DNA from: Gemmatimonadota bacterium
GTDB lineage: Bacteria > Gemmatimonadota > Gemmatimonadetes > Gemmatimonadales > GWC2-71-9
Assembly: GCA_036679645.1 (NCBI GenBank)
Contig: JAZDCY010000014.1
Coordinates: 128,001 to 192,000 of the forward strand
Reading direction: 5' to 3'
Length of the DNA: 64,000 bases
The position numbers and the translations under genes are program-made. Position 1 is the first letter of the stretch. Each line of letters opens with the position of its first letter. Shown here one piece after another: positions 2,199-62,507 of this stretch. The notes below the pieces were generated by a model. The model made no database searches. It was given only the letters and a program-made list of their open reading frames with translations, and had not been told where the DNA came from.

Positions 2199-2534
2199 GA
2201 GGCCCCACCTTGGTGCGCAGTGGTGATCCGTGTGTGCCCCACCGTTCACGCCGGCAACACGCCTCTTGCGGACGGGTGAGGGTCTGGCTTACGTCAGCGG
2301 TGTCCGGAGAGGTTCCCGCCATGGCACCTCGACGCAGTTCACGATCGTGCGGCGTCCCCTTGCCCGAGGTGAGGGTCGAACTCACACGGGGTTGCCCCCA
2401 CCGGACATCGGCCCGGCGCGTCTGCCATTTCGCCACTCGGGCAAGGAACAGGGAATATAGCTGCGGTGCGAAGAGGATCCCGACTAGCCCACGCGGGATG
2501 CCGGACGTCTCCCGAAGTACGAGGAGCTGTGAGT

Positions 2535-20195: not shown

Positions 20196-20510
20196 TTGAC
20201 TACTATAACAGGTGACACGACAGATGGAGAGATTATCCGCGAACTCGGTCTGCGGCTACGCTCTTATCGCCTTCAGCAGAATCTCAGCGTCGCGGAGGTC
20301 GCGGCGCGGGCCGGACTGAACCCGAACACGGTCGTCAATGCCGAGGGTGGCAAGAACTCGCGCCTCACAACGATCATGCGCCTCCTCCGGGTATACGGAC
20401 GCATTGAGGCGGTGAACGCGTTCCTTCCTGCACCGCAAATATCCCCCCTGGAACTAGCGAGGCGAAAGGGCCACCCTCGCAAGCGCGCGCGGAAGCGCAA
20501 AGATGGCTGA
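20196..20510 (+). CDS. hipB: XRE-family HTH antitoxin (HipB-like)
   Basis: RLQQNLSVAEVAARAGL..NTV.NAE.G; overlaps hipA. Confidence 0.85.
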   Translation: MTTITGDTTDGEIIRELGLRLRSYRLQQNLSVAEVAARAGLNPNTVVNAEGGKNSRLTTIMRLLRVYGRIEAVNAFLPAPQISPLELARRKGHPRKRARKRKDG

Positions 20511-21780
20511 GACCGCAGTCTGGGCTGAGATCTGGCTGTGGGACACGTGGGTTGGAGCCGTCGCAGAGGCGGAGGATGGCCAGGTCACGTTCGAATACAA
20601 CCCCGAGTTTCGGAAACAAGGGCTCGAGATATCCCCGTTGATGTTACCGCTGTCGAGAGAAGGCGCCGTCACCTTCCCAGAGCTTCATCGAGTAGAGGCC
20701 TTTCAGGGACTGCCCGGCGTCTTGGCAGACGCCCTGCCCGATCGATTTGGCAACGCGGTGATCAGGAAGTACTTCTCGGACCGCGGAACACCCGAGGCAG
20801 CCATGCGTCCGGTGCAGAAACTTCTGTACATCGGGGAGCGCGCAATGGGCGCTTTAGAGTTCCGCCCTGCCATCAAGATCCGACGCACTGCCGAGCGTGA
20901 ATCCCTCGAGATCGCTGAACTGGTCGAGCAAGCTCGGGTCGTCATCGAAGGGCGACCGGACGTGAGCATTCCGGAGATGATGCGCGTCGGCGCGTCTGCT
21001 GGAGGGGCGCGAGCGAAAGCACTGATTCTGTGGAATCGTGCAGCAGACGAGGTGCGCTCGGCGTTCGCCACGCCACGGCAGGGGGATGAGCACTGGATGG
21101 TCAAATTCGACGGCGTGGGTGAGCTGGGCGAGCCTGACGCGACTCCAAAGCCCTTCAATCGGATCGAATTCGTCTACTCACGCCTTGCGCGAGACGCAGG
21201 GATCACCATGCCAGAGACCAGACTGTTTCAAGAGCGAGAGCACGGGCATCTGATGGTCAAGCGGTTCGACAGATCGGAAACGCAGAGACTGCACTTACAC
21301 AGTCTTGGTGGTATCCACCACATCGACTTCAACACCCCCGGTCTATTCTCGTACGAACAGTTCTTGCGGACGATCCTGTCCCTCGGGCTCGACTACCGCA
21401 CAATGGAGGAGGCGTATCGCCGCTCCGTGTTCAACATCGTGGCCGTAAACCAAGATGACCACGTCAAGAACATCGGCTTCCTGATGGACAGACAGGGGAC
21501 CTGGCAACTCTCACCTGCCTATGACCTCACCTACGCTCGAGGAACCGGTTACACCCGGCGTCATCAAATGTCGCTCAATCGTAAGCGTGACGACTTCATC
21601 AGAGACGATCTGCTCGTTCTCGGGAAGAAAATGGGAATCAAACGTGGTGGAGAGTATGTAATTGACGAAGTGATCGAATCCATGAGCAATTGGAAGGAAT
21701 ATGCCAGGGAGGCCATGGTCCCGAGCGGCACAATAGAGTCGATACAGAAGCAGTTTCGTCTGCTGCGCGCGCGCGCTTGA
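20503..21780 (+). CDS. hipA: HipA-family kinase toxin
   Basis: LADALPDRFG, GALEF, GASAGGARAK, NQDDHVKN, LSPAYDL. Confidence 0.93.
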   Translation: MAETAVWAEIWLWDTWVGAVAEAEDGQVTFEYNPEFRKQGLEISPLMLPLSREGAVTFPELHRVEAFQGLPGVLADALPDRFGNAVIRKYFSDRGTPEAAMRPVQKLLYIGERAMGALEFRPAIKIRRTAERESLEIAELVEQARVVIEGRPDVSIPEMMRVGASAGGARAKALILWNRAADEVRSAFATPRQGDEHWMVKFDGVGELGEPDATPKPFNRIEFVYSRLARDAGITMPETRLFQEREHGHLMVKRFDRSETQRLHLHSLGGIHHIDFNTPGLFSYEQFLRTILSLGLDYRTMEEAYRRSVFNIVAVNQDDHVKNIGFLMDRQGTWQLSPAYDLTYARGTGYTRRHQMSLNRKRDDFIRDDLLVLGKKMGIKRGGEYVIDEVIESMSNWKEYAREAMVPSGTIESIQKQFRLLRARA

Positions 21781-41410: not shown

Positions 41411-44086
41411 TCACCGCAACGCATTCACGACGACTACGAAACGGCTTTGCGCTTCACTGGCCGGATTGGCTGGAGCCACGATTCTCGATCCATCTGGATG
41501 GACGTCGAGTCCGTAATTGTTTCCCGGGCCTTTCCCTGCATGTACCCACGCCTCGCCGAAGTAGAAACGGTCGATCACGCGCACTTGTGCTCCAAATTCG
41601 ACGGTGACCTTCGAAAACCCGGAGCTCGTTGGTGAGCCGAAGAGGGCGCTCCCGTCAGGGCTCCAGCGCGTAAGCCCTGCGGGCCCCAGGAGAGTCCGAT
41701 TGGTACCGTCTGGGAAGGCACGCAGGTAGGATCGGGCCGCCCCCCCACCTTCATCGGAGCCAACCAGGGCCCACCGCGCATCGGGTGACAATGCGATGTC
41801 TAATTCGTCCACACCTCTGGTTTGGAGAAAGGGCCGGGAAACAAGCGACGAATCCCTGGACGAGTAGAGTATGTCGCTATTAAACGGGTCATCGGGCTCT
41901 GCTTCTGGCCAGGCAAGCCAACGGCCGTCGCGGGAGACGTCGATCGGTCCTGTGATCGTGCCTTCGTAGATTGTCTCGGCGGTGCCGGCACCGTCGGCGG
42001 ATATCTTCTTGATGCTGTGATACAGTTCCGCAGCCCGGCCCAGCTCGTCACCCTCGAGGAAAAGGATAGAATCGCCACTGGGAGTCCACGCGGGGTAGGC
42101 GCCATTGGCCACGAGGCGGATCCGGCTATGCCGCTCGAGATCGTAGATCCAGATACTTGCATCGATGGAGCCCGACTGGTACGCAATTCGAGCACCGTCC
42201 GGTGAGAACCGTGGTGCACGGGTGTCTCCGGTGATGGGCAGCTGTTCCACCTGGCCGTCGGTGGAGGCGATGATCAGGGTGGCGTGCGACACGCTCTGTG
42301 CCGTCACTAGCGTTCCCGTTGCCGAGATCGCGTACTCGATCACCTGATCGGGTCGGGTAATCACCGATTCGGCAATACGAGCTTCTCTTCCCACCGTCAT
42401 GCGATCGACGTCGATTGGCTGGGCAATGACGGAGCCGTCGCCATGGCCGGTCAGAAGGTGGCCGTCGGCGTACCGGGGCTGCCAGCCGAGCGCAAGCGTT
42501 GTGCGTTCCGTTGTTGTGAGTGAGAGTGCGTCGACACGATCTTCCCAATCGCCCTCCTCGGAGGCAACCACGGAAAAAATGATGGTCTTCCCGTCGGGTA
42601 ACACGTCCGGCCATATCAACCCACGCTCGCCCGCGGCCGCATCGACCTCGAGGATCGTGGCCAACGATCCGCCAGCAGCCGATACTCGTGACAGCCCTCC
42701 TGCTCTGGTCGCGACGACGATCGTGTTGTCCGGCAACCAGACCGCCCCCTGCGGAAAGTCAAACGTTGGGTCCCTAACCACCGTGCGAGGTGCTCCCCCC
42801 GCGACTGGGACGACCCACATGGACCGATCGGTATCGCCGAAATAGCCGATCTGATTGCCGTCTGGAGAGAAGAAGAGAGTTCTCGCGCCCAAGGTCTGTG
42901 GCAACTGCCTGGCCTCGAGCTCACCAACCGGGCGCACGTAGATGTGCCGACCGCCACCGCGGGGCCCTCCCGTGTAGGCGATCATTCGACCGTCTCGTGA
43001 GATGATCGCCGCCGGGCCGCAGCACCTGAATTCAATAACGTGCGTGGAGTCCGGGCCAAACGAAAAACGTGCCGGCACCGCAGTCGGTGTCGGGGTGGTC
43101 GCGATGCGCCCGATGACGATGCCGATTAGGAGCGCCGGTATCGCGCCGGCGGTGACTAGGAGCCCCGGGGTCCGCCACCATTCCCGCTCGTGGCCGTCAC
43201 CCCGACGTACCGTGCCAGTCTCCCGGCCTCCTCTCAGCGTCGCGCGAGTAAACGACGGGTCGTTGAGCGCGCTCCCGAAGGCCGCCGCACTGTCAAACCG
43301 GTCTGCGGGAAGTTTTTCGAGCGCCTTTGCCAACGCGGCAGCGACATGTGGTGGCACCGTCTTGCGAAGCTCGGTGACCGAACGCGCCTCTTCGGTCACG
43401 ATTTTCATGATGATGGCCTGCGCGGTCGGGCCGGCGTGCGGTGGATCGCCCGCCAACATTTCGTACAGCACGCACGCGAGGGAGTAGACGTCCGATCGAT
43501 GCGTGAGATCTTTCTCCGCCGTCGCCTGCTCGGGCGACATGTAATGCGGCGTGCCGAGCGAGAGCCCGGTCTCCGTCAACCGCCCGCCCGCCGCGGCACT
43601 CACCGCCAGCGCAATGCCGAAATCCGCCACCATCGGACGGCCATTGTGCAGTAGGATGTTCTCCGGTTTGATGTCCCGGTGGATCACTCCCTGCTGGTGC
43701 GCGTAGTCCAGCGCGTCGGCGACCTCCGTCGTGATCCGCACCGCTTCTTCGATGCCCAACTGCGTTTCGCGATCCAGTTTTGCGCGCAGTGTCTCGCCGT
43801 CGATAAACGGCATGACGTAATAGAGGAAACCGTCCGCCTCGCCCGAATCGAACAGCGGTAGGACGTGCGGGTGCTGAAGATTGGCGGTGGTCGTGATCTC
43901 CTGCACGAACCGCTCGGCCCCGAGCACAGCCGCTAGTTCAGGGCGCAGCACCTTGACCGCGACCTTGCGCTGGTGCTTGAGGTCTTCGGCGAGATAGACG
44001 GTGGCCATGCCGCCACTGCCCAGCTCACGCTCGATCGTGTAGCGATCGGCGAGGGCGCTGGTGAGGCGGTCAGGAGTCGTCGTCAG
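41411..44086 (-). CDS. Membrane Ser/Thr kinase with TolB-like beta-propeller; start codon uncertain
   Basis: Hanks motifs, TM, SPDG repeats. Homology to paralogs begins at CTG 44086, overlapping the upstream TGA. Confidence 0.9.
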   Translation of the reverse strand: MTTTPDRLTSALADRYTIERELGSGGMATVYLAEDLKHQRKVAVKVLRPELAAVLGAERFVQEITTTANLQHPHVLPLFDSGEADGFLYYVMPFIDGETLRAKLDRETQLGIEEAVRITTEVADALDYAHQQGVIHRDIKPENILLHNGRPMVADFGIALAVSAAAGGRLTETGLSLGTPHYMSPEQATAEKDLTHRSDVYSLACVLYEMLAGDPPHAGPTAQAIIMKIVTEEARSVTELRKTVPPHVAAALAKALEKLPADRFDSAAAFGSALNDPSFTRATLRGGRETGTVRRGDGHEREWWRTPGLLVTAGAIPALLIGIVIGRIATTPTPTAVPARFSFGPDSTHVIEFRCCGPAAIISRDGRMIAYTGGPRGGGRHIYVRPVGELEARQLPQTLGARTLFFSPDGNQIGYFGDTDRSMWVVPVAGGAPRTVVRDPTFDFPQGAVWLPDNTIVVATRAGGLSRVSAAGGSLATILEVDAAAGERGLIWPDVLPDGKTIIFSVVASEEGDWEDRVDALSLTTTERTTLALGWQPRYADGHLLTGHGDGSVIAQPIDVDRMTVGREARIAESVITRPDQVIEYAISATGTLVTAQSVSHATLIIASTDGQVEQLPITGDTRAPRFSPDGARIAYQSGSIDASIWIYDLERHSRIRLVANGAYPAWTPSGDSILFLEGDELGRAAELYHSIKKISADGAGTAETIYEGTITGPIDVSRDGRWLAWPEAEPDDPFNSDILYSSRDSSLVSRPFLQTRGVDELDIALSPDARWALVGSDEGGGAARSYLRAFPDGTNRTLLGPAGLTRWSPDGSALFGSPTSSGFSKVTVEFGAQVRVIDRFYFGEAWVHAGKGPGNNYGLDVHPDGSRIVAPANPASEAQSRFVVVVNALR

Positions 44087-45257
44087 GTCTCCGACAGCTG
44101 TTGTGATAGTCTCCGGAGCGAGATCGCCTTCACCGAATCCGCCATCGGCCACTCCTCGGTCCCACCATGTACCACGTACGCCTCGCTTGGCCGCAGGGTC
44201 GTGCACGCCAATCGGAAGCCCCGAGACACGCTCGGTGCGGTGGTACGTCTGATTTCGATCGCCAGTTCGACCTTCCCACCGCGCTCGAACACGAGATCTA
44301 TCTCGGCACCGTCCGCCGTTCGATAGAAGTACGGTGTGCGGCGCTCGCCCCCGGCAGCGATGAGGTTTTCGATGGCGAAGCCATCCCAGCTCGGCCCCAC
44401 AACTGGATGGCCGATCACGTCATTCCACGTCTCGAGATCGAGCAGGGCGTGCAGCAGCCCGCTGTCGCGCACGTACGTCTTGGCAGATCGCACCAACCGC
44501 TTCCCGACATTGCCACTCCACGGCCGCAACCGCCGCACCAGGAGCAGGTCCACCAAGAGGTCAACATACCGCGCAATCGCCAGCCCGGAGACCCCCAAGC
44601 TGGAAGCCAGTCGTGAGTGGTTGAGCAGCGTACCCTGCCCGTGTGCCAGCATGCCCCAGAGCCGCGCAATCGTTTCCGCCGGCAGCCGGGGCGCGAACAT
44701 CGGCACGTCGCGTTCCAGGTAGCTCCTGATGAAGTCGCTTCTCCAGGAAAAACTCCGTGAGTCATCCTTCGCCAGGTAACTGCGCGGAAACCCGCCCCGC
44801 ACCCACAGTGTATCCACGTCACCCGCCTCCCCGGTTATCTCGCCGACCTCCAGCGGGGCCAGTTCGACATAGGCCACTCGTCCGGCCAGCGATTCGGTCG
44901 TCTGTCGCATCAGATCCAGATCGGCCGATCAAGAAGCAGGAAATGCCCCGCCGCCTCACCGGCGGCGCGACGCATATCGATCACCCCGCGGAGGATCCCG
45001 AATAGTCCCGGAGCTCGATGTATCTCATCGATCACGACGAGCTTCCCGCTCTGGGCTCGGAGAAAGGCATCCGCATCATCCAGCCGGCGACGATCGGCGG
45101 GCCGCTCCAGGTCCAGATATACCGCGTTACCCACCGCATCGGCCACGATGCGTCGCGCGAGCGTCGTCCTACCAACCTGACGCGGGCCGAGGAGCACCAC
45201 GCTGGGTTCGGAGCGAAGTCGATCCTCGATCATCGCTTGCAGGCGACGGGGTATCAC
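44083..45257 (-). pseudogene. AAA_14 ATPase + DUF4143 protein, frameshifted
   Basis: GPRQVGRTT, VIDEIH, then ESLAGR, RGGFP, D.GLL, YFYRT..GAEIDL in another frame; 1-nt loss near 44930 (GGA->GA). Confidence 0.88.
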
Positions 45258-45259
45258 AA

Positions 45260-45298
45260 TGGCCGTAAATTGAACGTCACACGTTAATATTACGGCCA
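45260..45298. promoter_or_regulatory. Inverted repeat at the ATPase start (putative operator)
   Basis: TGGCCGTAA-N21-TTACGGCCA with inner AACGT/ACGTT. Confidence 0.55.
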
Positions 45299-45416
45299 AC
45301 GACGAGCCCATCAACCAGCGGACATCCGTCGCACCGCGGCGAGTTCGGTCATCTAGCCATCAGCGCTCCACACGTCACGCCCTATTTTGGTTGCCACTTG
45401 CAGCTGACGGTTCAAT

Positions 45417-46482: not shown

Positions 46483-47121
46483 CTAGCAAACGCTCCCGAG
46501 CGCGACGCGAATGGCTTCGCCGCTGACGCCGCTCGACTCTTCCGACGCGAAGAAAGCGATCATCTCGGCGACCTCCTGAGGCGTGGCGACGCGGCCCGGT
46601 GGATACAGGGCAGCCCGGTCCTGCCAGTCCCGTGCGACCGATCGCATTAATCCGATTAATCCGTGCTTGGAGGCCGTGTAGGCGCTTCCCGCATACTCGG
46701 CGACCAGACCGGCCGTCGAACTGGTGTAGACGAGGCGTCCGTAGCCGCGTTCGACCATCCCGCGCACCACCAACCGCGAGAGGTGGAAGGGTCCGTCGAG
46801 GTTGATCCGCATCGTCTCGCTCCAGACGTTGGGATCCTGCTCCCAGATCACCCGCTCGTGGGCCGAGCCGATACCGTGATTGCAGACGAGGATGTCGATT
46901 GGTCCCAAGCGTCGCTCGGTTTCAGCGACGGCAAGCGCGCAACCCTCGCGCGTGCCGAGATCTGCGACCGTGTACTCGAGACCGAGCGCGGCCAACTCGT
47001 GTTCGCTGCGCGAGATACCCATGACCTGGGCACCACGCGCCGCCAGCAGCTCCGCGACCGCGCGCCCAATGCCTCTGCCTGCGCCCGTGACGAGCGCGAT
47101 CCGGCCCTCGACTCCTGCCAT
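46483..47121 (-). CDS. SDR oxidoreductase with probable internal deletion
   Basis: TGAGRGIG and YTASK present; the usual VNA.CPG.V.T segment after LMRSVA is missing. Confidence 0.8.
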   Translation of the reverse strand: MAGVEGRIALVTGAGRGIGRAVAELLAARGAQVMGISRSEHELAALGLEYTVADLGTREGCALAVAETERRLGPIDILVCNHGIGSAHERVIWEQDPNVWSETMRINLDGPFHLSRLVVRGMVERGYGRLVYTSSTAGLVAEYAGSAYTASKHGLIGLMRSVARDWQDRAALYPPGRVATPQEVAEMIAFFASEESSGVSGEAIRVALGSVC

Positions 47122-47311
47122 GCTCGGAACCTCCGTTGTGTCCTACGGCGTTCGCCCGGCCCGCGCCGGTGCACACTCCCTTAAGTGGGCTGCTCTGGCC
47201 TCATTGGTCAACTCCGCCGAATCCAAAGAACCGCTCGACTCGTAATTGTCTCGACCGGCATATCTCCGTATGCTCCCCAAGACGGTTCTCCTCGTACCAC
47301 AGGAGGGTCAC

Positions 47312-48433
47312 GTGACCCGTTTCTGGTTGGTGGCTTTGGCTTGCCCAGGCGTCCTCGCGGCGCAGGGGCGCTCCTTCAGGTGGACGAATCGCTACGTGCT
47401 CGGCGTAGAGCAGCAGCTGAGTGCGGGGCTGACGTTCGCGGACGTTGACGGTGATGGCGACATGGACGCGCTCGTCGCAAACGGTCGGCATTGGCCCCAG
47501 CGCAATGAGGTCTTTGTGAACAACGGAGCCGCACGCTTCACCGTGTCCTATGAGCTGGGATCGCGGAGCGCGACGACCTACGCCATCCCGGCGGGCGACT
47601 TGGACGGAGACGGCGACCCCGACGTCGTGGTTGCGAACGACATGGCAGAGAACTGGGTGTACCTGAACGACGGTGCGGGCCACTTCGAACCGGCTTGGCC
47701 GGTCGGGCCGGAGATCGAGCCCACTCGAAGCGCCCAACTCTACGACCTGGATGGCGATGGGGACTTGGACCTGCTCATCACCAACCGAGGGGCCAGCAAC
47801 GGACTTTTTCTGAACGACGGAAGCGGAAGGTTTGGACCGAAGCGCGAGTTTGGTGAGCCGCGCGGCTCGACCATTGCAGTAGCTGTAGGCGATGTCGACG
47901 GGGACGGCGACCCGGATTTGGTGCTCGCCAACCGCGACGGTCAGGCGAACCACGTGCTCCTGAACGATGGTCACCTGGGCTTCGAACAGAAGCGGGGCTA
48001 CGGCACGGGCAGCGACGAGACTCGCTCCGCGGCGTTGGCCGATCTGAATGGGGACGGCGTCCTCGACATCGTCAACGCGAACATCGGCGAGCCCAATGGC
48101 ATTTATCTGGGAGACGGAAGTGGCGGTTTCGATCGCGGCATTAGCGTGGGTGGGTCGGAGCAGTCTTACGCACTGGCCCTAGTCGATGTGGATCGCGACG
48201 GTGATATCGATGTCGTGGTAGCGAACGTTCGGGGACGAAACGAACTCTACCTGAATGATGGTTCGGGAGCGACTTGGACTCGCAGCCTGATCGGGGACGA
48301 ATCCTCCGTCACCTATGGCGTGGCCACCGCCGACCTCAACGCAGACGGGTTCGCCGATCTCGGGTTCGCCAATTCGGGCAGCGCCAACCTGATCTTCCTC
48401 AACGTCGAGGCCGAACGTAACCAGCCTGATTGA
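47312..48433 (+). CDS. Secreted FG-GAP/VCBS repeat beta-propeller protein
   Basis: Seven D(V/L)(D/N).DG..D....N repeats with LNDG; signal peptide; AGGAGG before GTG 47312. Confidence 0.9.
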   Translation: MTRFWLVALACPGVLAAQGRSFRWTNRYVLGVEQQLSAGLTFADVDGDGDMDALVANGRHWPQRNEVFVNNGAARFTVSYELGSRSATTYAIPAGDLDGDGDPDVVVANDMAENWVYLNDGAGHFEPAWPVGPEIEPTRSAQLYDLDGDGDLDLLITNRGASNGLFLNDGSGRFGPKREFGEPRGSTIAVAVGDVDGDGDPDLVLANRDGQANHVLLNDGHLGFEQKRGYGTGSDETRSAALADLNGDGVLDIVNANIGEPNGIYLGDGSGGFDRGISVGGSEQSYALALVDVDRDGDIDVVVANVRGRNELYLNDGSGATWTRSLIGDESSVTYGVATADLNADGFADLGFANSGSANLIFLNVEAERNQPD

Positions 48434-48527
48434 GTGGATCCCTTAGAAGCCGTATCCCTCAGTGTAGTGTCGAACCCGAGGCAGCCGTGTTACACGGCTA
48501 TCCCTTCTCCGACCCGCCGATTTTCAT

Positions 48528-48670
48528 TTTGTGGCGTGATTTCGGCTTTTATGGCGCGATAAGTTGTTTATTGGCGTGACATGGCTATTTGTGGCGCATT
48601 ATCGACTACACCAGATATATATGGCGCGATCTTCCATTTTATGGCGCGATGCTATATTATATGGCGCGAT
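48528..48670 (+). repeat. Seven phased direct repeats (consensus TWTATGGCGCGAT)
   Basis: TGGCG cores at 48532, 48552, 48572, 48592, 48622, 48642, 48662. Confidence 0.9.
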
Positions 48671-48693
48671 ATATACAGTAGGAGAGCCACCCA

Positions 48694-50076
48694 ATGCCGC
48701 GTTTATCAAAAGCCCAGATTGAGGCTGAACTTCAAGAAATCGCGGCGCTTCTCGCCGAAAACCCCGAAGGGATGAGCCGAAGGTTACTGGCGGAGGCCTA
48801 CACCAGGAGATTCGACAAAACCATAGCCAGCCGTACGCTTCAACGCCGCTTGGAAGAACTTGTCATCCGCGGTGACGCTACCTCACACGGAGCTGGCCCA
48901 GCCACCGCATATCGGCCGGCAACCGCAGACACCAAATCCGCGCCGTCTGAAGGATATCCACCCCTCTCCGTAGCAGCCACAAAGGTCCTCGCGCTCATCC
49001 GGCAACCTCTGTCGCGCAGGCCGCCGGTTGGCTATCACCGAGACTGGCTATTCGAATATGCGCCCGGAGCAACGTGGTATCTCCCAAAGAAAACCCGAGC
49101 ACACCTACACGAGACGGGAAAAACTGCCGACGACACCAGGCCGGCCGGTACGTTCGCGCGAGACATTCTCGGACGGCTCTTGATCGATCTCGCGTGGGCG
49201 TCGAGTCGACTAGAAGGAAACACCTACACGCGCTTAGACACGCAAAACCTGCTCGAATTTGGCCAACGCGCCGAGGGCAAGGACGCTCAGGAAACGCAGA
49301 TGATCCTGAACCACAAAGCCGCCATCGAGCACTTGGTGTCGGACGCCGAATACATTGGGTTCAATCGCCCGACAGTGCTGGCACTTCATGCGGCGCTGTC
49401 TGAGAACTTGCTGGCAGACCCCGCCGACGAGGGGCGCCTCCGCGAACGCCCCGTGAGCATCACGAGAACTAGCTACACGCCGATGGCCATCCCCCAGGTT
49501 GTCCGTGAGTGCTTCGATCGTATTCTGGAATCAGTGGCGCTCATTCCCGACCAGTTCGAGCAAGCATTCTTCATGATGGTTCACGTTCCATATTTGCAGC
49601 CCTTTGTGGACGTCAACAAACGGACTTCTCGGTTGGCAGCGAACATATCGCTGGTCAACTCGAATCTTTGCCCATTGTCGTTTGTCGATGTTCCTGAAGA
49701 CGCATATGTAGAGGGAACGCTCGCCGTGTACGAACGGAAACGTATCGAGTTACTACGCGACGTTTTTGTCTTTGCATATGAGCGCTCCTGTGCGCAATAC
49801 CAGGTGGTTCGCGACGCTCTGGGGCAGCCAGATCCAATCCGTCTGCGATATCGGAACGAAATTGCTGCAGCTGTGGGAGAAGCTGTTAGGGCAGGCGACG
49901 CACCCAACACCGGCAGTCTGACGCGTCGTGGTGAGGAGCTCCAAGTGCCGAGGTCCGATTTGGACGCGTTCGCTGAAGCTGCTTTCACGGTACTGCTGAG
50001 CCTTCACGAAGGTTCAGCCGGGCGGTATGGTCTTAGGCCAAGCGAGTTTAGTGAATGGAAGGAGCGTTTTCGCTGA
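48694..50076 (+). CDS. Fic-family protein with N-terminal winged-HTH-like region and non-canonical motif
   Basis: SSRLEGN, MILNHK, YLQPFVDVNKRTSR; N-terminal SRTLQRRLEELV..G...G.GPAT.Y; AGGAG RBS. Confidence 0.9.
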   Translation: MPRLSKAQIEAELQEIAALLAENPEGMSRRLLAEAYTRRFDKTIASRTLQRRLEELVIRGDATSHGAGPATAYRPATADTKSAPSEGYPPLSVAATKVLALIRQPLSRRPPVGYHRDWLFEYAPGATWYLPKKTRAHLHETGKTADDTRPAGTFARDILGRLLIDLAWASSRLEGNTYTRLDTQNLLEFGQRAEGKDAQETQMILNHKAAIEHLVSDAEYIGFNRPTVLALHAALSENLLADPADEGRLRERPVSITRTSYTPMAIPQVVRECFDRILESVALIPDQFEQAFFMMVHVPYLQPFVDVNKRTSRLAANISLVNSNLCPLSFVDVPEDAYVEGTLAVYERKRIELLRDVFVFAYERSCAQYQVVRDALGQPDPIRLRYRNEIAAAVGEAVRAGDAPNTGSLTRRGEELQVPRSDLDAFAEAAFTVLLSLHEGSAGRYGLRPSEFSEWKERFR

Positions 50077-50090
50077 AGACCCACCGCTGG

Positions 50091-52382: not shown

Positions 52383-52937
52383 TCATATGGGGAGGTTCTC
52401 GAACAGGCTCGCAAGCGGCAGCGCGAGTTCCTCAGCGTCCGGCGCCACCCGCCACCGGAGCATGTCGGTGATGATCTCGGGACGTTTGTCATCCGGGTGC
52501 CAAACCTCTACCAGTGCTGCGTCGGGATCGACGATCCAATAGGTGGCGACGCCCTGGCGCTGGTAGAGCTGGCGCTTGACAAGGCGGTCTCCCCGGGCAG
52601 ATGAGGGCGAGAGGATCTCGGCGGCGAGCAGCAGCGTGCGTACGGTCTTCCAGGTGGCCGACATCTCGCGCGCGGGAATGACGAACAGATCGGGCTGCAC
52701 GAGCTTCTCCCGATCCCAACTGATGTCCGCGGGTGAGAAAAGCACAGCGACGTCGGGGTACTCCTCCAGGTGGTTGGCCAGCTCGCGGTACAATCGACCG
52801 AGCACCACCTGGTGCCGCGTCCCGGGCACGGGTGTCACGAGCAGCTCGCCGTCGACCAACTCGTAGCGGTTCCCGTCGTCGGGGAAGGCGAGCACTTCGT
52901 CCACGGTGTAGCGGCGGGCCGTATCTGGCATACCCAT
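52383..52937 (-). CDS. Uma2-family putative endonuclease
   Basis: PDDGNRYELVDGEL, QPDL, EILSPSS..D..KR.LY..GV..YWIVDP. Confidence 0.9.
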   Translation of the reverse strand: MGMPDTARRYTVDEVLAFPDDGNRYELVDGELLVTPVPGTRHQVVLGRLYRELANHLEEYPDVAVLFSPADISWDREKLVQPDLFVIPAREMSATWKTVRTLLLAAEILSPSSARGDRLVKRQLYQRQGVATYWIVDPDAALVEVWHPDDKRPEIITDMLRWRVAPDAEELALPLASLFENLPI

Positions 52938-53031
52938 AGGATGGCATCTCCTCGGCCGAGGGGGCAAGACATGGCCGATGATCTGAGATCTGCATTCAAC
53001 AATCTCCGATCGTTGTTTTGTCGACGTGTGT

Positions 53032-53796
53032 CTACTCGTCGCTGTGCGCTCCGGGCTCATACACCGCGAAAGCCGCCCCCTGCGGATCCGTTGCTTGGAC
53101 GATGCGACCCCCGGCGGGGACTTCCATTGGGCCGTTCACGACCTTGCCGCCATGTTCCGTGACCGTCTTGGCGAACGCATCCGCGTCCTTGATGTGTGCG
53201 TACGGGAGCCAATGCGGCGGCGCGGGCATGTCGGGCGGCTTGTTGTACATGCCCCCCATGCTCTTGCCGTCCAACCCGTACATGCGGTAGGTGCCGGCGG
53301 GCCCCATGTCCATGGTGTCGGTCTCTTCCCAGCCAAATAACGCCTGGTAGAACGGCCACGCGGCTTTCCAGTCGGTAGTCGCGAGTTCATGCCAACCGAA
53401 TTCGAGTTCGGGTTTCGCGTCTGGAGGGGGGGCGTCGCCGTGCGTGTGAATACCGAACGTCGCTCCCTGCGGATCCGCCAGGACGGCGTACTTGCCTCCG
53501 CCCGGAATGTCGCTGGGCCCGACGTAGGCCTTGGCACCCATGGACTTTGCTTTCGCTGCCGTCGCATCGACATCGTCAACGTTGAGGTACGAGATCCAAT
53601 GGGGTGGTGCGCCCATGGCCTCGGCCGGCAGCTTCATGACGCCCCCGATCGGCACGCCACCTGCGGTCCACATCTGGTAGTCGGCGTCAAAGGGCGCCGT
53701 GCCCAGACCGAGGACCTTGCCGTAGTAGTCGATCGCGGCGTCGACGTCTGTGGTCATGCAGTCGTGCCACGCGAAACTCCCATGTTTCTCTCCCAT
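53032..53796 (-). CDS. Two-domain VOC protein (CFP32-like)
   Basis: WHD/WHE..T.D and DPQGA duplicated. Start trimmed to ATG 53796. Confidence 0.9.
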   Translation of the reverse strand: MGEKHGSFAWHDCMTTDVDAAIDYYGKVLGLGTAPFDADYQMWTAGGVPIGGVMKLPAEAMGAPPHWISYLNVDDVDATAAKAKSMGAKAYVGPSDIPGGGKYAVLADPQGATFGIHTHGDAPPPDAKPELEFGWHELATTDWKAAWPFYQALFGWEETDTMDMGPAGTYRMYGLDGKSMGGMYNKPPDMPAPPHWLPYAHIKDADAFAKTVTEHGGKVVNGPMEVPAGGRIVQATDPQGAAFAVYEPGAHSDE

Positions 53797-55793: not shown

Positions 55794-56096
55794 TTAGGCG
55801 ACTCTTGCACGCCGCTTCGTGGTGACACTCACCTGCACATCGGCCGCCCCGAGCATCGCGATGAGTGTGTCGACACTGAAGCGTTCGATCTTGCCACGGA
55901 CGAGATCACTCACTCGGGGCTGGGACACGCCAAAGAGCTTGGCCGCCTGGACCTGGGTCAGGCCCCGATCCTCGATGAGCTTGCTGATCGCGATCATCAG
56001 ATCGGCGCGCACGCGGAGGTTTGCCGCCTCCTCGGGCCCGAACCCGAGATCGCGAAAGACGTTGTTGCTTGCGCGTCGACTCTTTTTTTTCGCCAT
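55794..56096 (-). CDS. XRE/HTH_37 antitoxin (HigA-like)
   Basis: NVFRDLG, LTQVQAAKLFGVSQPRVSDL.RGK; AGGAGG RBS. Confidence 0.9.
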   Translation of the reverse strand: MAKKKSRRASNNVFRDLGFGPEEAANLRVRADLMIAISKLIEDRGLTQVQAAKLFGVSQPRVSDLVRGKIERFSVDTLIAMLGAADVQVSVTTKRRARVA

Positions 56097-56105
56097 CCTG
56101 TCCTC

Positions 56106-56440
56106 CTACAGGTGCTTTCGGAGCGTCTGGACATCAGCCAGCCGCCTGTTGCCGAGCTCGATGTCTGCCTTCCGGGTGCGCCGCGTTCGCTTCTCGAACG
56201 CATGCAGGACATACACCGCCTCCGCGAACTTCGCGATGTAGAACACCCGATGCGCGGTGCCGCCGTGGAGTCGGATCTCGTAGACGCCGGACCCGACCGC
56301 ACTCATGGGCTTCCAGTCGTCAGGCATGAGTCCACTCTGGACGCGCCGCAGCTGTACCCGGCTTGGCTCCGCGCGTTGGCGGGGAAAGCCCGCAGATCAT
56401 CGAGCGCCGACCCAACCCAGTGGAGCGGTTTGTCGGGCAT
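56106..56440 (-). pseudogene. RelE/ParE (Gp49/HigB-like) toxin, frameshifted
   Basis: MPDKPLHWVGSALDDLRAFP..AGY / QL.RVQSGLMPDDWKPM..GVYEIR..LHAFEK; 1-nt loss near 56354 (TAC CAG->TAC AG). Confidence 0.88.
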
Positions 56441-59297: not shown

Positions 59298-59425
59298 GGG
59301 TCTAGAAGATGTGACTTCGTGACAGAGAGCGCGAGGTTCGCGGAGTTTGGGCCCTATTGGGCCCCAATGCGAAAACGACCACTCAAGCGAGCGGACGGAG
59401 CGTGCGCGGGAGCGGACGCTCCGTC
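59298..59425 (-). promoter_or_regulatory. Kinase 5' cassette with GGGCCC-AA repeats and hairpin next to the tRNA fragment
   Basis: ctagaagatgtg..agcgcgagg..gtttgggccctattgggccccaa; GACGGAGCG..CGCTCCGTC stem. Confidence 0.7.
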
Positions 59426-59478
<53 letters not shown>

Positions 59479-59486
59479 AATCGACT

Positions 59487-62400
59487 CTACGCCGCATCCC
59501 CAGTCTCGTATGTCAACCGAAACACGGTGTCCGCCACCCACCGCCTAAAACCTTCATTATCACTGAACTGCTTGAAGAGCTCAGTGTCATCTTTGAGCAG
59601 TCCCGTCACGACTCGCAGTAAAGCCCTATCGTGCTCGATACGAGCATTCTGTTTGTCGGAGTGCTCTCGTGCGTTCCGGTACGCCGTGTCTGCCAAGACC
59701 CCTGCCGGAATCTCCTCCGTGATGAGTCGGTGAATGCGATCCTTGTCGGTCCACGGAATGTTGCCAAAGTGATCGTTGAAGGCCTTGAGAATACTCGACA
59801 GGCGGTCGAGTTCCGGCTCGGGCTTGCGCCCCCCGCCGGTGGTCGGGACCGGCTCGATCTCCGCGTCCGCGTCGCGAAGCTGAATCTTCGCCGCCTCCTG
59901 TTTCTCGACGCGGTAGCTGTCCATGTCGATCGCTTCAAGGATCCCCCTGGCTGGATCCGGGTCGATGGGCGCCGGTAGCTTCGGAACAAGGAAGTTCAGA
60001 AAGATCGAAAGCCTCTCCCAATCGGCGTTGTTGTAGGGCAGGATGGACGCCAGGAATCCGTAGGTGCGTAAGAACGCCTTTGCCTTGCCCTTGAAGTCCA
60101 CCTGCCCGTCTTCGTCGAGCTGATCCTTGTAGACTGCGACACAGGCATCGAGAATTGGGTCGAGCTTGTCCCGGTCAGCGCCGCCCAGGTACAGCTCGAC
60201 GAGCCGGTCGATCTGTTCGGCCGCATAGACCTGATAACCGTCGAGAGTTGCTCTCAGGTCGTGGAGCTTGTTCGGGTCGGTCTCCTCGGCGAGGATCGTC
60301 GTGCGGTAGTAATCGGCGAACGCCGTCTCCATCGTATCCGCGTCGTTCATGAAGTCGAGCACGAACACGTCGTGCTTCCGAGGGCGCGCGCGGTTGAGCC
60401 GTGAGAGCGTTTGCACTGCCTTGATACCCGACAGAATCTTGTCCACGTACATCGTGTGCAGGAGCGGCTCGTCGTAGCCGGTCTGGAACTTGTCCGCGCA
60501 GACGAGAAACCGGTACGGGTGCGCCTGGATCTTGTCGGTGATCTTGCTGGATGGAAAACCGTTCAACGACACTTCGGTCACCTTCGTCCCGCCGAAGTCG
60601 TGCTCGCCGGAGAAGGCCACTATGGCCCTGTGAGGGCTCTTGCGCTCCACGAGATAGTCACGGATGGCATGGAAGTACTTGATGGCCCGTTCGATGCCGC
60701 TCGTCACCACCATCGCACGGGCATCTCCGCCGATCTTCCTGAGCGCAAGCACCTGTTCGTGGAAATGATCCACCATGATCTCGGCCTTGAGCCGGATCGC
60801 GTGGTCATGACTCTCGACGTAGCGCCGCAGCTTCTTCCTGGCGCGCTTGGTGTCGAACTCCGGATCCTCCTCGACGGTCTTGACCAGCCGGTAGTAGCTG
60901 TTGACCGGCGTATAGTGCTTGAGGACGTCCAGAATGAAACCCTCCTGGACGGCCTGCTTCATGGTGTAGCTGTGGAAGGGATGGTGCTTGACCGTTGCGT
61001 CTGGCTGGGGATTTGGCTCGCCGAAGATCTCGAGCGTCTTGTTCTTGGGCGTGGCGGTGAAGGCGAAGTAACTCGCGTTGGGCAGGAGCTTCTTGGCCTC
61101 GATCAGCCGGTTGATCCGGTCCTCCATTGTCTCGTCATCTTCCTCGGCCCCCGCCTCCGAGAGCGCCACGGACAGCGCGGCAGATGTGCGTCCGCCCTGG
61201 CTCGAGTGCGCCTCGTCGATGACGATGGCAAAGCGCCGCCCGCGGTGCTCGCTCCCGATCTCATCAATGATGAACGGAAACTTCTGCACCGTGGAGATGA
61301 TGATCTTCTTGCCCTCGGCGATGAACTTGCGCAAGTCGCCGGCACGCTCGGCGTGGCCCACGGTCGCCGCGACCTGCGCGAACTGCTTTATGGTGTTCTT
61401 GATCTGCTGGTCGAGGATCCTCCGGTCGGTAACCACGATGATCGAGTCGAACACCGCCGCATCGTGCTTCTCGAGACCGATCAGCTGGTGCGCGAGCCAG
61501 GCGATGGAGTTCGACTTGCCGCTGCCCGCCGAGTGCTGGATCGGGTAGCGCTTGCCCGCCCCGCGCCGGGCGGTGTCCGCCAGAAGCTCCCGCACAACAT
61601 CGAGCTGATGGTACCGCGGCCAGATCTGCGACTTCTTCTTCCGGCCGGTTTTCTCGTCCTTGATCTCGACTATCTGTGCGTAGTTCTCCAGGATGTCGGT
61701 CAGGCCCTCGCGCGTGAGGACACGCTTCCACAGGTAGTCCGTCTTGAGGCCGTTCGGGTTGGGCGGATTGCCGGCACCGTCGTTCCATCCCTGGTTGAAG
61801 GGCAGAAACCACGAGGCCTTGCCTTTGAGATGCGCGCAGAAGCGCACCTCGTGGTCGTCGACGGCAAAGTGAACAACGCAGCGGCCGAACTCGAACAGCT
61901 TCTCGCGCGGGTCGCGGTCGCGCTTGTACTGCTGCACGGCGTCGTCGACCGTCTGCTTGGTGAGGCTGTTCTTCAGTTCGAAGGTGGCGATGGGCAACCC
62001 GTTGATGAACAGGCCGAGGTCGAGCGCGAGCTGCGTCTCGTCGCGGCTGTAGCGGAACTGGCGAGTCACGCTGAACCGATTCGCGGCGAACCGCTCCTCT
62101 GCTTTGACGTTTCCGGGTGATGGCGTTGCGCAGAAGAGATCGACGTGGTGCGGGCCATGCTTGATGCCGTGCCGCAGCACATCGATCACGCCGCGCTTGC
62201 TGATCTCTCCCTGGAGTCGAGCCATGAACTGCCGGCGCGCGGGTCCGTCCGTGCCGAGCGACAGCGCTTCCTCGAGCGGTGGCTGCGTCGCCATGACGAA
62301 GCCGCGAAGCTGCACCAGGTCAACCGTGTACTCACGGTCGTAGTGCGTGGCGTCGCCTAGTAGCCACCCGGTCCCGCCCGCAACCGGCACCGACGTCTCC

Positions 62401-62507
62401 GTCGCCACATGCGCCGGGGACAGCACATCGGTGCGCCCCGTCATGGCCCGGACGATCAACTCCTCGAGGCCGCGTTCGGTTGTGTCTGTGGTTCGCCGGG
62501 TTGTCAT
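59487..62507 (-). CDS. hsdR: Type I restriction endonuclease subunit R
   Basis: NGLP..ELKN, QHSAGSGKS, DEAH, FTATP, KFQTGYDEP, QTLSRLNR. Confidence 0.95.
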   Translation of the reverse strand: MTTRRTTDTTERGLEELIVRAMTGRTDVLSPAHVATETSVPVAGGTGWLLGDATHYDREYTVDLVQLRGFVMATQPPLEEALSLGTDGPARRQFMARLQGEISKRGVIDVLRHGIKHGPHHVDLFCATPSPGNVKAEERFAANRFSVTRQFRYSRDETQLALDLGLFINGLPIATFELKNSLTKQTVDDAVQQYKRDRDPREKLFEFGRCVVHFAVDDHEVRFCAHLKGKASWFLPFNQGWNDGAGNPPNPNGLKTDYLWKRVLTREGLTDILENYAQIVEIKDEKTGRKKKSQIWPRYHQLDVVRELLADTARRGAGKRYPIQHSAGSGKSNSIAWLAHQLIGLEKHDAAVFDSIIVVTDRRILDQQIKNTIKQFAQVAATVGHAERAGDLRKFIAEGKKIIISTVQKFPFIIDEIGSEHRGRRFAIVIDEAHSSQGGRTSAALSVALSEAGAEEDDETMEDRINRLIEAKKLLPNASYFAFTATPKNKTLEIFGEPNPQPDATVKHHPFHSYTMKQAVQEGFILDVLKHYTPVNSYYRLVKTVEEDPEFDTKRARKKLRRYVESHDHAIRLKAEIMVDHFHEQVLALRKIGGDARAMVVTSGIERAIKYFHAIRDYLVERKSPHRAIVAFSGEHDFGGTKVTEVSLNGFPSSKITDKIQAHPYRFLVCADKFQTGYDEPLLHTMYVDKILSGIKAVQTLSRLNRARPRKHDVFVLDFMNDADTMETAFADYYRTTILAEETDPNKLHDLRATLDGYQVYAAEQIDRLVELYLGGADRDKLDPILDACVAVYKDQLDEDGQVDFKGKAKAFLRTYGFLASILPYNNADWERLSIFLNFLVPKLPAPIDPDPARGILEAIDMDSYRVEKQEAAKIQLRDADAEIEPVPTTGGGRKPEPELDRLSSILKAFNDHFGNIPWTDKDRIHRLITEEIPAGVLADTAYRNAREHSDKQNARIEHDRALLRVVTGLLKDDTELFKQFSDNEGFRRWVADTVFRLTYETGDAA

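Follow-up and report, generated by a model that had tools for sequence, protein, structure and literature searches.

A wHTH-Fic gene with a non-canonical Fic motif and a probable autoregulatory operator array of phased repeats in a Gemmatimonadota bacterium

A gene encoding a stand-alone 460-amino-acid protein, P0001, with an N-terminal winged helix-turn-helix (wHTH) and a Fic domain was identified directly downstream of seven phased direct repeats. The reading that we consider probable as a whole is that of a self-repressing wHTH-Fic gene with its own operator array and a Fic domain that likely does not AMPylate. According to this account, the winged-helix domain of the downstream-encoded protein would bind the seven repeats in series, the bound protein would cover its own promoter and repress its own gene, and this autorepression would limit the amount of a Fic domain for which nucleotide binding is predicted. 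The window, which is the whole stretch of 64,000 nucleotides that was analysed, contained the following features at this locus.

48483-48499, no strand: 8-1-8 palindrome, real, outside the conserved unit (sequence)
48528-48671, + strand: array of seven sites in direct repeat with the consensus WWDTGGCGYRAW, inferred to be operators of the gene downstream
48532, 48552, 48572, 48592, 48622, 48642 and 48662, + strand: seven TGGCG cores (sequence)
48650-48658, + strand: putative extended -10 element (TGn plus five of the six bases of a -10 hexamer) lying between the sixth and seventh sites and lacking a good -35; the region's best promoter-like match
48680-48684, + strand: Shine-Dalgarno-like AGGAG (sequence)
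48694-50076, + strand: gene for the 460-aa wHTH-Fic protein P0001, stand-alone (Pfam Fic, E 3.9e-8; model pLDDT 91.8)
48694-48933, + strand: N-terminal wHTH, aa 1-80 (structure model)
48829-48870, + strand: recognition helix, aa 46-59, with Q50 and R51 the best predictors of the repeat sequence (covariation)
49201-49221, + strand: class II inhibitory-helix motif S-x-x-x-E-G-N, S170-N176, including E174 (alignment to the FICD inhibitory helix)
49597-49632, + strand: non-canonical Fic motif, aa 302-313, QPFVDVNKRTSR (sequence)
49819-50073, + strand: helical domain at the C-terminus, aa 376-460, without a clear structural relative (best Z 5.7)

The repeat array at the locus

All seven sites were located in the 260 nt that separate the ATG at 48694 from the preceding FG-GAP-repeat gene (47246-48433). 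As the preliminary description had reported, the TGGCG cores were spaced by 20, 20, 20, 30, 20 and 20 bp, the spacers were non-repeating, and the last 13-mer ended at 48670, 23 nt upstream of the ATG. Four of the seven units carried the exact 11-mer and the other three contained one to three differences. The GC content of the array was 42%, compared with 63% for the window. Scanning the 4.05-Mb genome with the family position weight matrix (PWM) gave 409 single matches, four clusters of two sites and one cluster of seven sites, which was the query array; no second cluster of three or more sites was found in the genome. The period of the array was exactly 10.0 bp, and at 10.5 bp per turn the sites would drift by 223 degrees across the array. 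The earlier proposal of cooperative binding on a single helix face thus fails on straight B-DNA and would need bent or wrapped DNA; otherwise the sites would trace a left-handed path. The exact 10.0-bp spacing and the A/T-rich flanks point to DNA that is bent or wrapped on the protein, and we put the chances of this at about even.

The match of a contig of another run, X2, to the locus was confined to 48526-50081 (array plus gene), at about 95% identity and with different flanks. It contained 78 substitutions and 23 gap letters, and its array carried a net insertion of 20 nt. Because this match, from one contig, covers just the array and the gene, the two apparently travel as one unit. In a minor contig of run X1 (depth 15.3), the array end was joined to 48930, skipping nearly exactly the wHTH-coding part (48691-48930); this contig is either a variant in which the wHTH was swapped or deleted, or an assembly artefact.

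A palindrome had also been described as preceding the repeats. It does exist, at 48483-48499, but the genome contained 159 perfect 8-1-8 palindromes and the core heptamer was present upstream of the gene in 8 of 194 loci, close to the chance rate, so the palindrome was left out of the element. The same counts ruled it out as an att site, a terminator or a second operator. One further copy of its 11-bp core was found on the contig (G000:C7:104026), and its central heptamer was also present in the different flank of the X2 contig upstream of 48526.

Arrays in homologs and covariation with the recognition helix

Arrays were present upstream of homologs, which the preliminary description had named as a check. 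For the PWM enrichment, 172 fetched loci were reduced to 84 non-redundant loci below 75% identity, and two or more PWM sites were found in the 260 nt upstream of 67 of the 84. Among 255 control windows there were 2 such cases, and among 75 windows taken downstream there were 0. The PWM had been trained on the same loci that were scored. In a motif-blind search, 66 of 86 upstream regions exceeded the 95th percentile of 128 controls. For the covariation analysis, 199 loci were reduced to 102, of which 70 had a significant de novo array; from both sets, loci without upstream DNA or wHTH and redundant loci above 75% identity were dropped. Orientations were mixed in 58 of these 70 arrays and all direct in 12, the all-direct 20-bp layout being typical of the query's own clade. 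Same-strand spacings peaked at 20-21, 29-32, 40-41 and 60-61 bp, with a best period of 10.0 over the 70 loci. The homolog arrays comprised 3-13 phased sites and stopped 8-60 nt upstream of the start codon. Perfect 10-bp tandem operator-like repeats were observed upstream of L089 (13 copies), L109, L056 and L211. No clear array was found in the divergent, genus-level clade L189-L197, with the helix STVWR[A/S]L, which may be a subfamily that is inherited vertically and regulated in a different way.

The repeat was found to covary with the wHTH helix, the second relationship that had been proposed for checking. Among 102 non-redundant loci, the consensus site was present in 59 of the 62 with Q50-R51 and absent from 31 of the 40 with other helices. 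The exceptions were nine non-QR loci that kept the consensus (9/40) and three QR loci that lacked it (3/62), and another significant repeat was present in 22 of the 31 non-QR loci without the consensus. The helix PRTLRRRL was paired with TTTGACCAC, repeated every 20 bp, ERTMRRRL with 13 tandem copies of TGGCCGAATG, RRTLTRRL with TTGTCTCGA, PYAVxYR with TATCGATAA, and RRTLQYxL with TTGCGCA. After identity over residues 100-460 was regressed out, Q50 ranked first (r 0.38) and R51 third among 387 variable columns as predictors of repeat similarity, in 70 of the 102 loci. Eight-residue windows starting at positions 43-47 gave r values of 0.34-0.41, whereas elsewhere the mean was 0.014 (sd 0.085) and the maximum, at the wing, was 0.25.

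Residue 50 was related to site base 5, with Q paired with G (215/339), R with C (27/37), N with A (12/21), and L with A or T (17/17). Residue 51 was related to the site start, where R51 was found with TG[GT]C and TTGC in 272 and 54 cases, respectively, and Y51 in 2 and 21 cases, respectively. These residue-base pairings agree with the contacts that Arg and Asn usually make, to G and A, respectively. Ten later loci were compared, with L218 left out; three were 85-100% identical to earlier ones and seven were new, at 41-73% identity. In the seven new loci, read by eye, the repeat fitted the helix type or a new repeat accompanied a new helix. Two paralogs in genome G483 differed both in helix and in repeat. 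Tests on phylogenetically independent pairs were underpowered (four pairs, p 0.25; five pairs, p 0.5, with 3-4 of the five not differing), and the Y/D51 change was represented by a single pair.

A strict promoter scan at the query locus found no promoter, and at the best promoter-like match, the putative extended -10, the X2 copy differed at the free n position, 48652. Sigma-70-like promoter scores in the array spans were higher on the gene strand in 54 of 70 loci and lower in 15 of 70. A promoter is expected in any upstream region. The overlap of the arrays with promoter-like sites makes a role as autoregulatory operators, rather than as centromeres or RNAs, the most likely one, and the module appears to be autoregulated, as had been suggested. 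Judged from the covariation, the wHTH very likely binds its own array, reading it through residues 46-53 and the wing. By analogy with CccR, this binding would, with good probability, repress the gene's own transcription.

A further use of the array, which is compatible with autorepression, is as a scaffold or switch: an oligomer on the phased sites would hold the Fic domain off (or on), loss of the DNA, e.g., by phage-driven degradation, would flip its state, and repression would be a by-product. The number of sites exceeds the need of simple repression, with one inverted pair described for CccR and 13 tandem 10-mers at L089; the preferred spacings are multiples of about 10 bp, and DNA binding is described as switching CbFic2 between AMPylation and deAMPylation (PMC10628234). 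However, site number, spacing and orientation vary so widely among the loci, with orientations mixed in 58 of 70, as to argue against one fixed assembly, and CccR's regulatory activity and its toxicity are described as independent of each other (PMC9755527). We consider the scaffold or switch unlikely, and autorepression is retained as the preferred reading.

The Fic domain and its genomic setting

P0001 matched Pfam PF02661 with 34.5 bits, which assigns it to the Fic fold. Its wHTH was modelled with the elements H6-22, H29-40, H46-59, E62-65 and E72-75, and resembled winged-helix domain structures with Z about 10 and rmsd 1.2-2.5 over 62-80 aa. The Fic core aligned over 270 aa with FICD (Z 23.9, rmsd 5.6) and over 253 aa with SoFic (Z 22.2, rmsd 3.4); it also aligned with CbFic2 (Z 19.3). 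The PADLOC match to the SoFic model was weak (37 bits), no NCBIfam naming model matched P0001, and two unnamed PHROGs families covered the Fic core. In the ESM Atlas, P0001 matched 'putative Fic family' clusters only, and the C-terminal part matched sub-0.9 hypothetical clusters only. The C-terminal domain had no clear fold match (best Z 5.7), which does not amount to a new fold. The homodimer prediction gave a score of 0.00, which is no answer and weighs neither way.

In the Fic motif, Gln302 replaces the catalytic His, Val the first Gly, and a Doc-like Lys the second Gly; Asp, Asn and both Arg, the final one being R313, are retained. The GNG anion hole of canonical AMPylating Fic proteins (HxFx[D/E]GNGRxxR) is absent, with V-N-K at 307-309. 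Among 150 representatives at 50% identity, Q302, K309, D306, N308, R313 and E174 were present in 145, 132, 136, 145, 148 and 143, respectively, and His at position 302 was present in 0 of the 150, distant members included. A set assembled without motif patterns also had Q302 in all of its 78 full-length rows, the query among them. The replacement of the catalytic His, seen earlier in this one protein, is thus a fixed feature of the family. An N-terminal inhibitory (S/T)xxxE(G/N) helix in the same chain, S170-E174-G175-N176 (E in 143/150), assigns P0001 to the class II Fic proteins. The mean column conservation was 0.73 in the Fic core versus 0.37 in the wHTH. Eight distant representatives (P0142, P0153, P0187, P0212, P0225, P0257, P0262 and P0270) kept the Gln and had lost K and/or R of NKR, which suggests further degenerate subfamilies. 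The family comprised at least 8000 clusters at 90% identity (8000 of the 8000 scored candidates) and 1240 representatives at E<=1e-30. Named loci were distributed over Gemmatimonadota, Chloroflexota, Pseudomonadota, Thermodesulfobacteriota, Bacteroidota, Planctomycetota, Myxococcota, Verrucomicrobiota and Chlamydiota.

Because the pocket is conserved, the Fic domain is likely to bind nucleotide. The absence of the catalytic His and the GNG hole makes canonical AMPylation unlikely, so that, judged from the motif, the domain is quite probably not a canonical AMPylase. The Lys at motif position 8 (NKR) inverts ATP in Doc (review PMC4177925), which makes Doc-like inverted-ATP phosphotransfer without a His base our best single guess, a tentative one by analogy; loss of the general-base His is a point against any efficient transfer reaction. 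A non-catalytic nucleotide-binding effector is about equally likely, and some other chemistry only slightly less so.

The gene was patchily distributed, being found in 28 of 401 genomes for the phylum, 21 of 401 for the order and 2 of 186 others in the family. No syntenic match to the 5.7-kb region was found in 30 relatives, two of the same genus, and there was no recurring partner gene among the 146 nearest ORFs of at least 90 aa. Classified by hand, 15 of the 146 nearest genes were of defence or toxin-antitoxin (TA) type compared with 4 of 119 control ORFs (p 0.03); defence/TA and mobile-element genes together amounted to 23 of 146 (8 mobile) compared with 4 of 119 (0 mobile; p 0.0008), the controls being taken from 15 blocks of six genomes. 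Among neighbours with a Pfam hit, 44 of 67 were ordinary housekeeping genes, and 6 of 116 second neighbours matched PADLOC defence models. The gene neighbourhood thus gives a toxin or defence role modest support at most. A tRNA was located within 1.5 kb at 3 of 101 loci, and tRNA-linked integration was rejected on this count. One homolog, L182:1777-2818, sat directly before seven clustered tRNA genes. The gene occurred on 33 of 72,556 plasmid records, 7 of the 33 being conjugative or mobilizable; phage records gave partial matches only (2 of 50,697), and 11 loci were on viral contigs.

Within 30 kb of the gene in the window, HipBA, a HigBA-like pair, Uma2, AAA_14/DUF4143 and HsdR were found. 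HipBA (20196-21777), Uma2 (52383-53060) and the HigBA-like pair (55794-56327) lay amid six Ser/Thr kinase genes, an accessory region. AAA_14 and DUF4143 were encoded in two abutting ORFs (44083-45314, - strand) and formed a single chain in the neighbour of L132; the two ORFs are probably a frameshifted gene. A tRNA-like fragment, presumably of a tRNA-Lys (59420-59475, - strand), adjoined a type I HsdR gene (59490-62507); its D and anticodon arms were recognised by eye, ARAGORN made no call, and the fragment is possibly an island border. A short-chain dehydrogenase fragment (46500-47141) had a 91%-identical copy at G000:C6:103955-104615. The ARAGORN call 'tRNA-???' at 2360-2443 (- strand), with a two-base anticodon, is probably spurious.

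The distribution of sites and neighbours bears on what the protein does. A transcription factor that lacks catalysis, senses nucleotide and controls a regulon would suit the family-wide loss of the general-base His together with the retained pocket residues, and the wHTH-sensor-helical layout resembles that of one-component regulators. Such a factor is nevertheless improbable, as the genome contained one cluster of three or more sites, there was no conserved neighbour to regulate, and the gene is patchy and mobile. With the cluster at this promoter only, regulation would serve to keep the protein low, and a harmful output fits better than a regulon. A one-gene effector, of the toxin/stress or the anti-phage kind, with its own inhibitor helix and its own repressor is a plausible role, at a little under an even chance.

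The preliminary description had also compared the array with iterons and centromeres. Direct 20-bp repeats with a wHTH partner, 33 plasmid records and 11 viral-contig loci would suit an iteron or a centromere of a mobile element, of the ParR-parC or TubR-tubC type. However, no partition NTPase or replicase was found among the 146 nearest neighbours, the plasmid records were 33 of 72,556 with seven conjugative or mobilizable, and the arrays stop 8-60 nt before the start codon with orientations mostly mixed (58/70), so this role is very improbable. Least likely of all, and scarcely credible, is an RNA function of the repeats, of the type III antitoxin or CRISPR kind, as repeats with unique spacers 5' of a toxin-like gene might suggest, given no Rfam match at E<=5, a fold z of -1.31 that was matched by 21 of 200 shuffles, spacers of about 8 nt, sites on both strands and covariation with a DNA-recognition helix.

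Relation to known Fic proteins and significance

The module had been called possibly uncharacterised. The motif itself was already listed as clade D2 by Khater and Mohanty in 2015 (PMC4454073), with the consensus Qx[F/Y]x[D/E][G/V]NKR in 45 bacterial sequences that are usually single-domain; the term still applies to function, which is given there as unknown, with the clade suspected to be non-AMPylating. P0001 has a motif in full agreement with the D2 consensus. Where D2 proteins are described as usually single-domain, P0001 consists of a wHTH, a Fic and a C-terminal domain, and profiles for such flanking domains may be lacking in the D2 paper. Its clade section, on 45 sequences, contains no wHTH or upstream DNA, compared with at least 8000 clusters, three domains and an operator array here. 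The 45 sequences may include members of the wHTH-Fic family.

CccR of Yersinia pseudotuberculosis is described as a T6SS-secreted protein that AMPylates FtsZ and whose HTH represses its own promoter (PMC9755527). It resembles P0001 as a class II Fic protein with an HTH in one chain. However, CccR has a C-terminal HTH, the canonical His and one inverted pair of sites 26 bp apart, whereas the P0001 family has an N-terminal wHTH, the Q/K motif and 3-13 phased sites. SoFic is described as binding its own promoter and AMPylating EF-Tu (bioRxiv 10.64898/2026.07.09.737422) and as an anti-phage family (PMC12249575; bioRxiv 10.64898/2026.07.09.737422); PMC5651007 is among the works set beside CccR, SoFic and CbFic2. 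Both SoFic and CbFic2 are class II Fic proteins with a wHTH and the same core fold as P0001, but in their published descriptions the wHTH is C-terminal, the motif is canonical and AMPylation is shown, in contrast to the wHTH at aa 1-80 and the Q/K motif of P0001. By analogy, P0001 would work like CccR and SoFic in its regulation; it is outside that group.

P1 Doc shares the Lys at motif position 8, which as K309 was present in 132 of the 150 representatives. However, P1 Doc keeps the His and has a small six-helix core, whereas P0001 lacks the His and has an FICD-like core (Z 23.9) and an internal inhibitory helix. Doc is a TA toxin whose antitoxin, Phd, is a separate protein. No recurring partner that would correspond to an adjacent Doc-type antitoxin gene was present among the 146 nearest ORFs of at least 90 aa. 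P0001 is by definition no Doc kinase. In ParR-parC and TubR-tubC, small DNA-binding domains occupy phased repeats over their own promoter, and AbiEi autoregulates; unlike these systems and AbiE, the present one is without a partition motor and without a second toxin gene.

In a literature search with subscription journals mostly outside its coverage, no paper on the N-terminal wHTH, arrays, covariation or function of this family was found, and no study of the Gln-motif Fic clade later than 2015. The Q motif (clade D2, 2015) and Fic-HTH autoregulation (CccR and SoFic) are already known; novelty lies in the wHTH at the N-terminus, in the phased operators of several sites and in the covariation of helix and site. 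On a more far-reaching view, which is rather unlikely, the family would be a very large set of one-gene defence or stress effectors in which a His-less Fic domain of new chemistry assembles on the phased array and is silenced by it, array and helix are re-coded in each lineage so that incoming copies avoid cross-repression, and the enzyme becomes active once the array DNA has been lost or outcompeted.

The Gln-motif Fic clade, functionally unexplained since 2015, gains a DNA-binding domain, likely binding sites and predicted specificity residues, Q50 and R51. With these supplied, a defined DNA ligand is at hand for direct tests of binding, repression and activity, and the presence of this ligand may be a requirement for observing any activity. 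Should the domain prove catalytic, this would be Fic chemistry that dispenses with the general-base His. The dozens of natural helix-operator pairs would allow the re-coding of wHTH specificity to be studied, and would possibly provide an orthogonal set of repressors.
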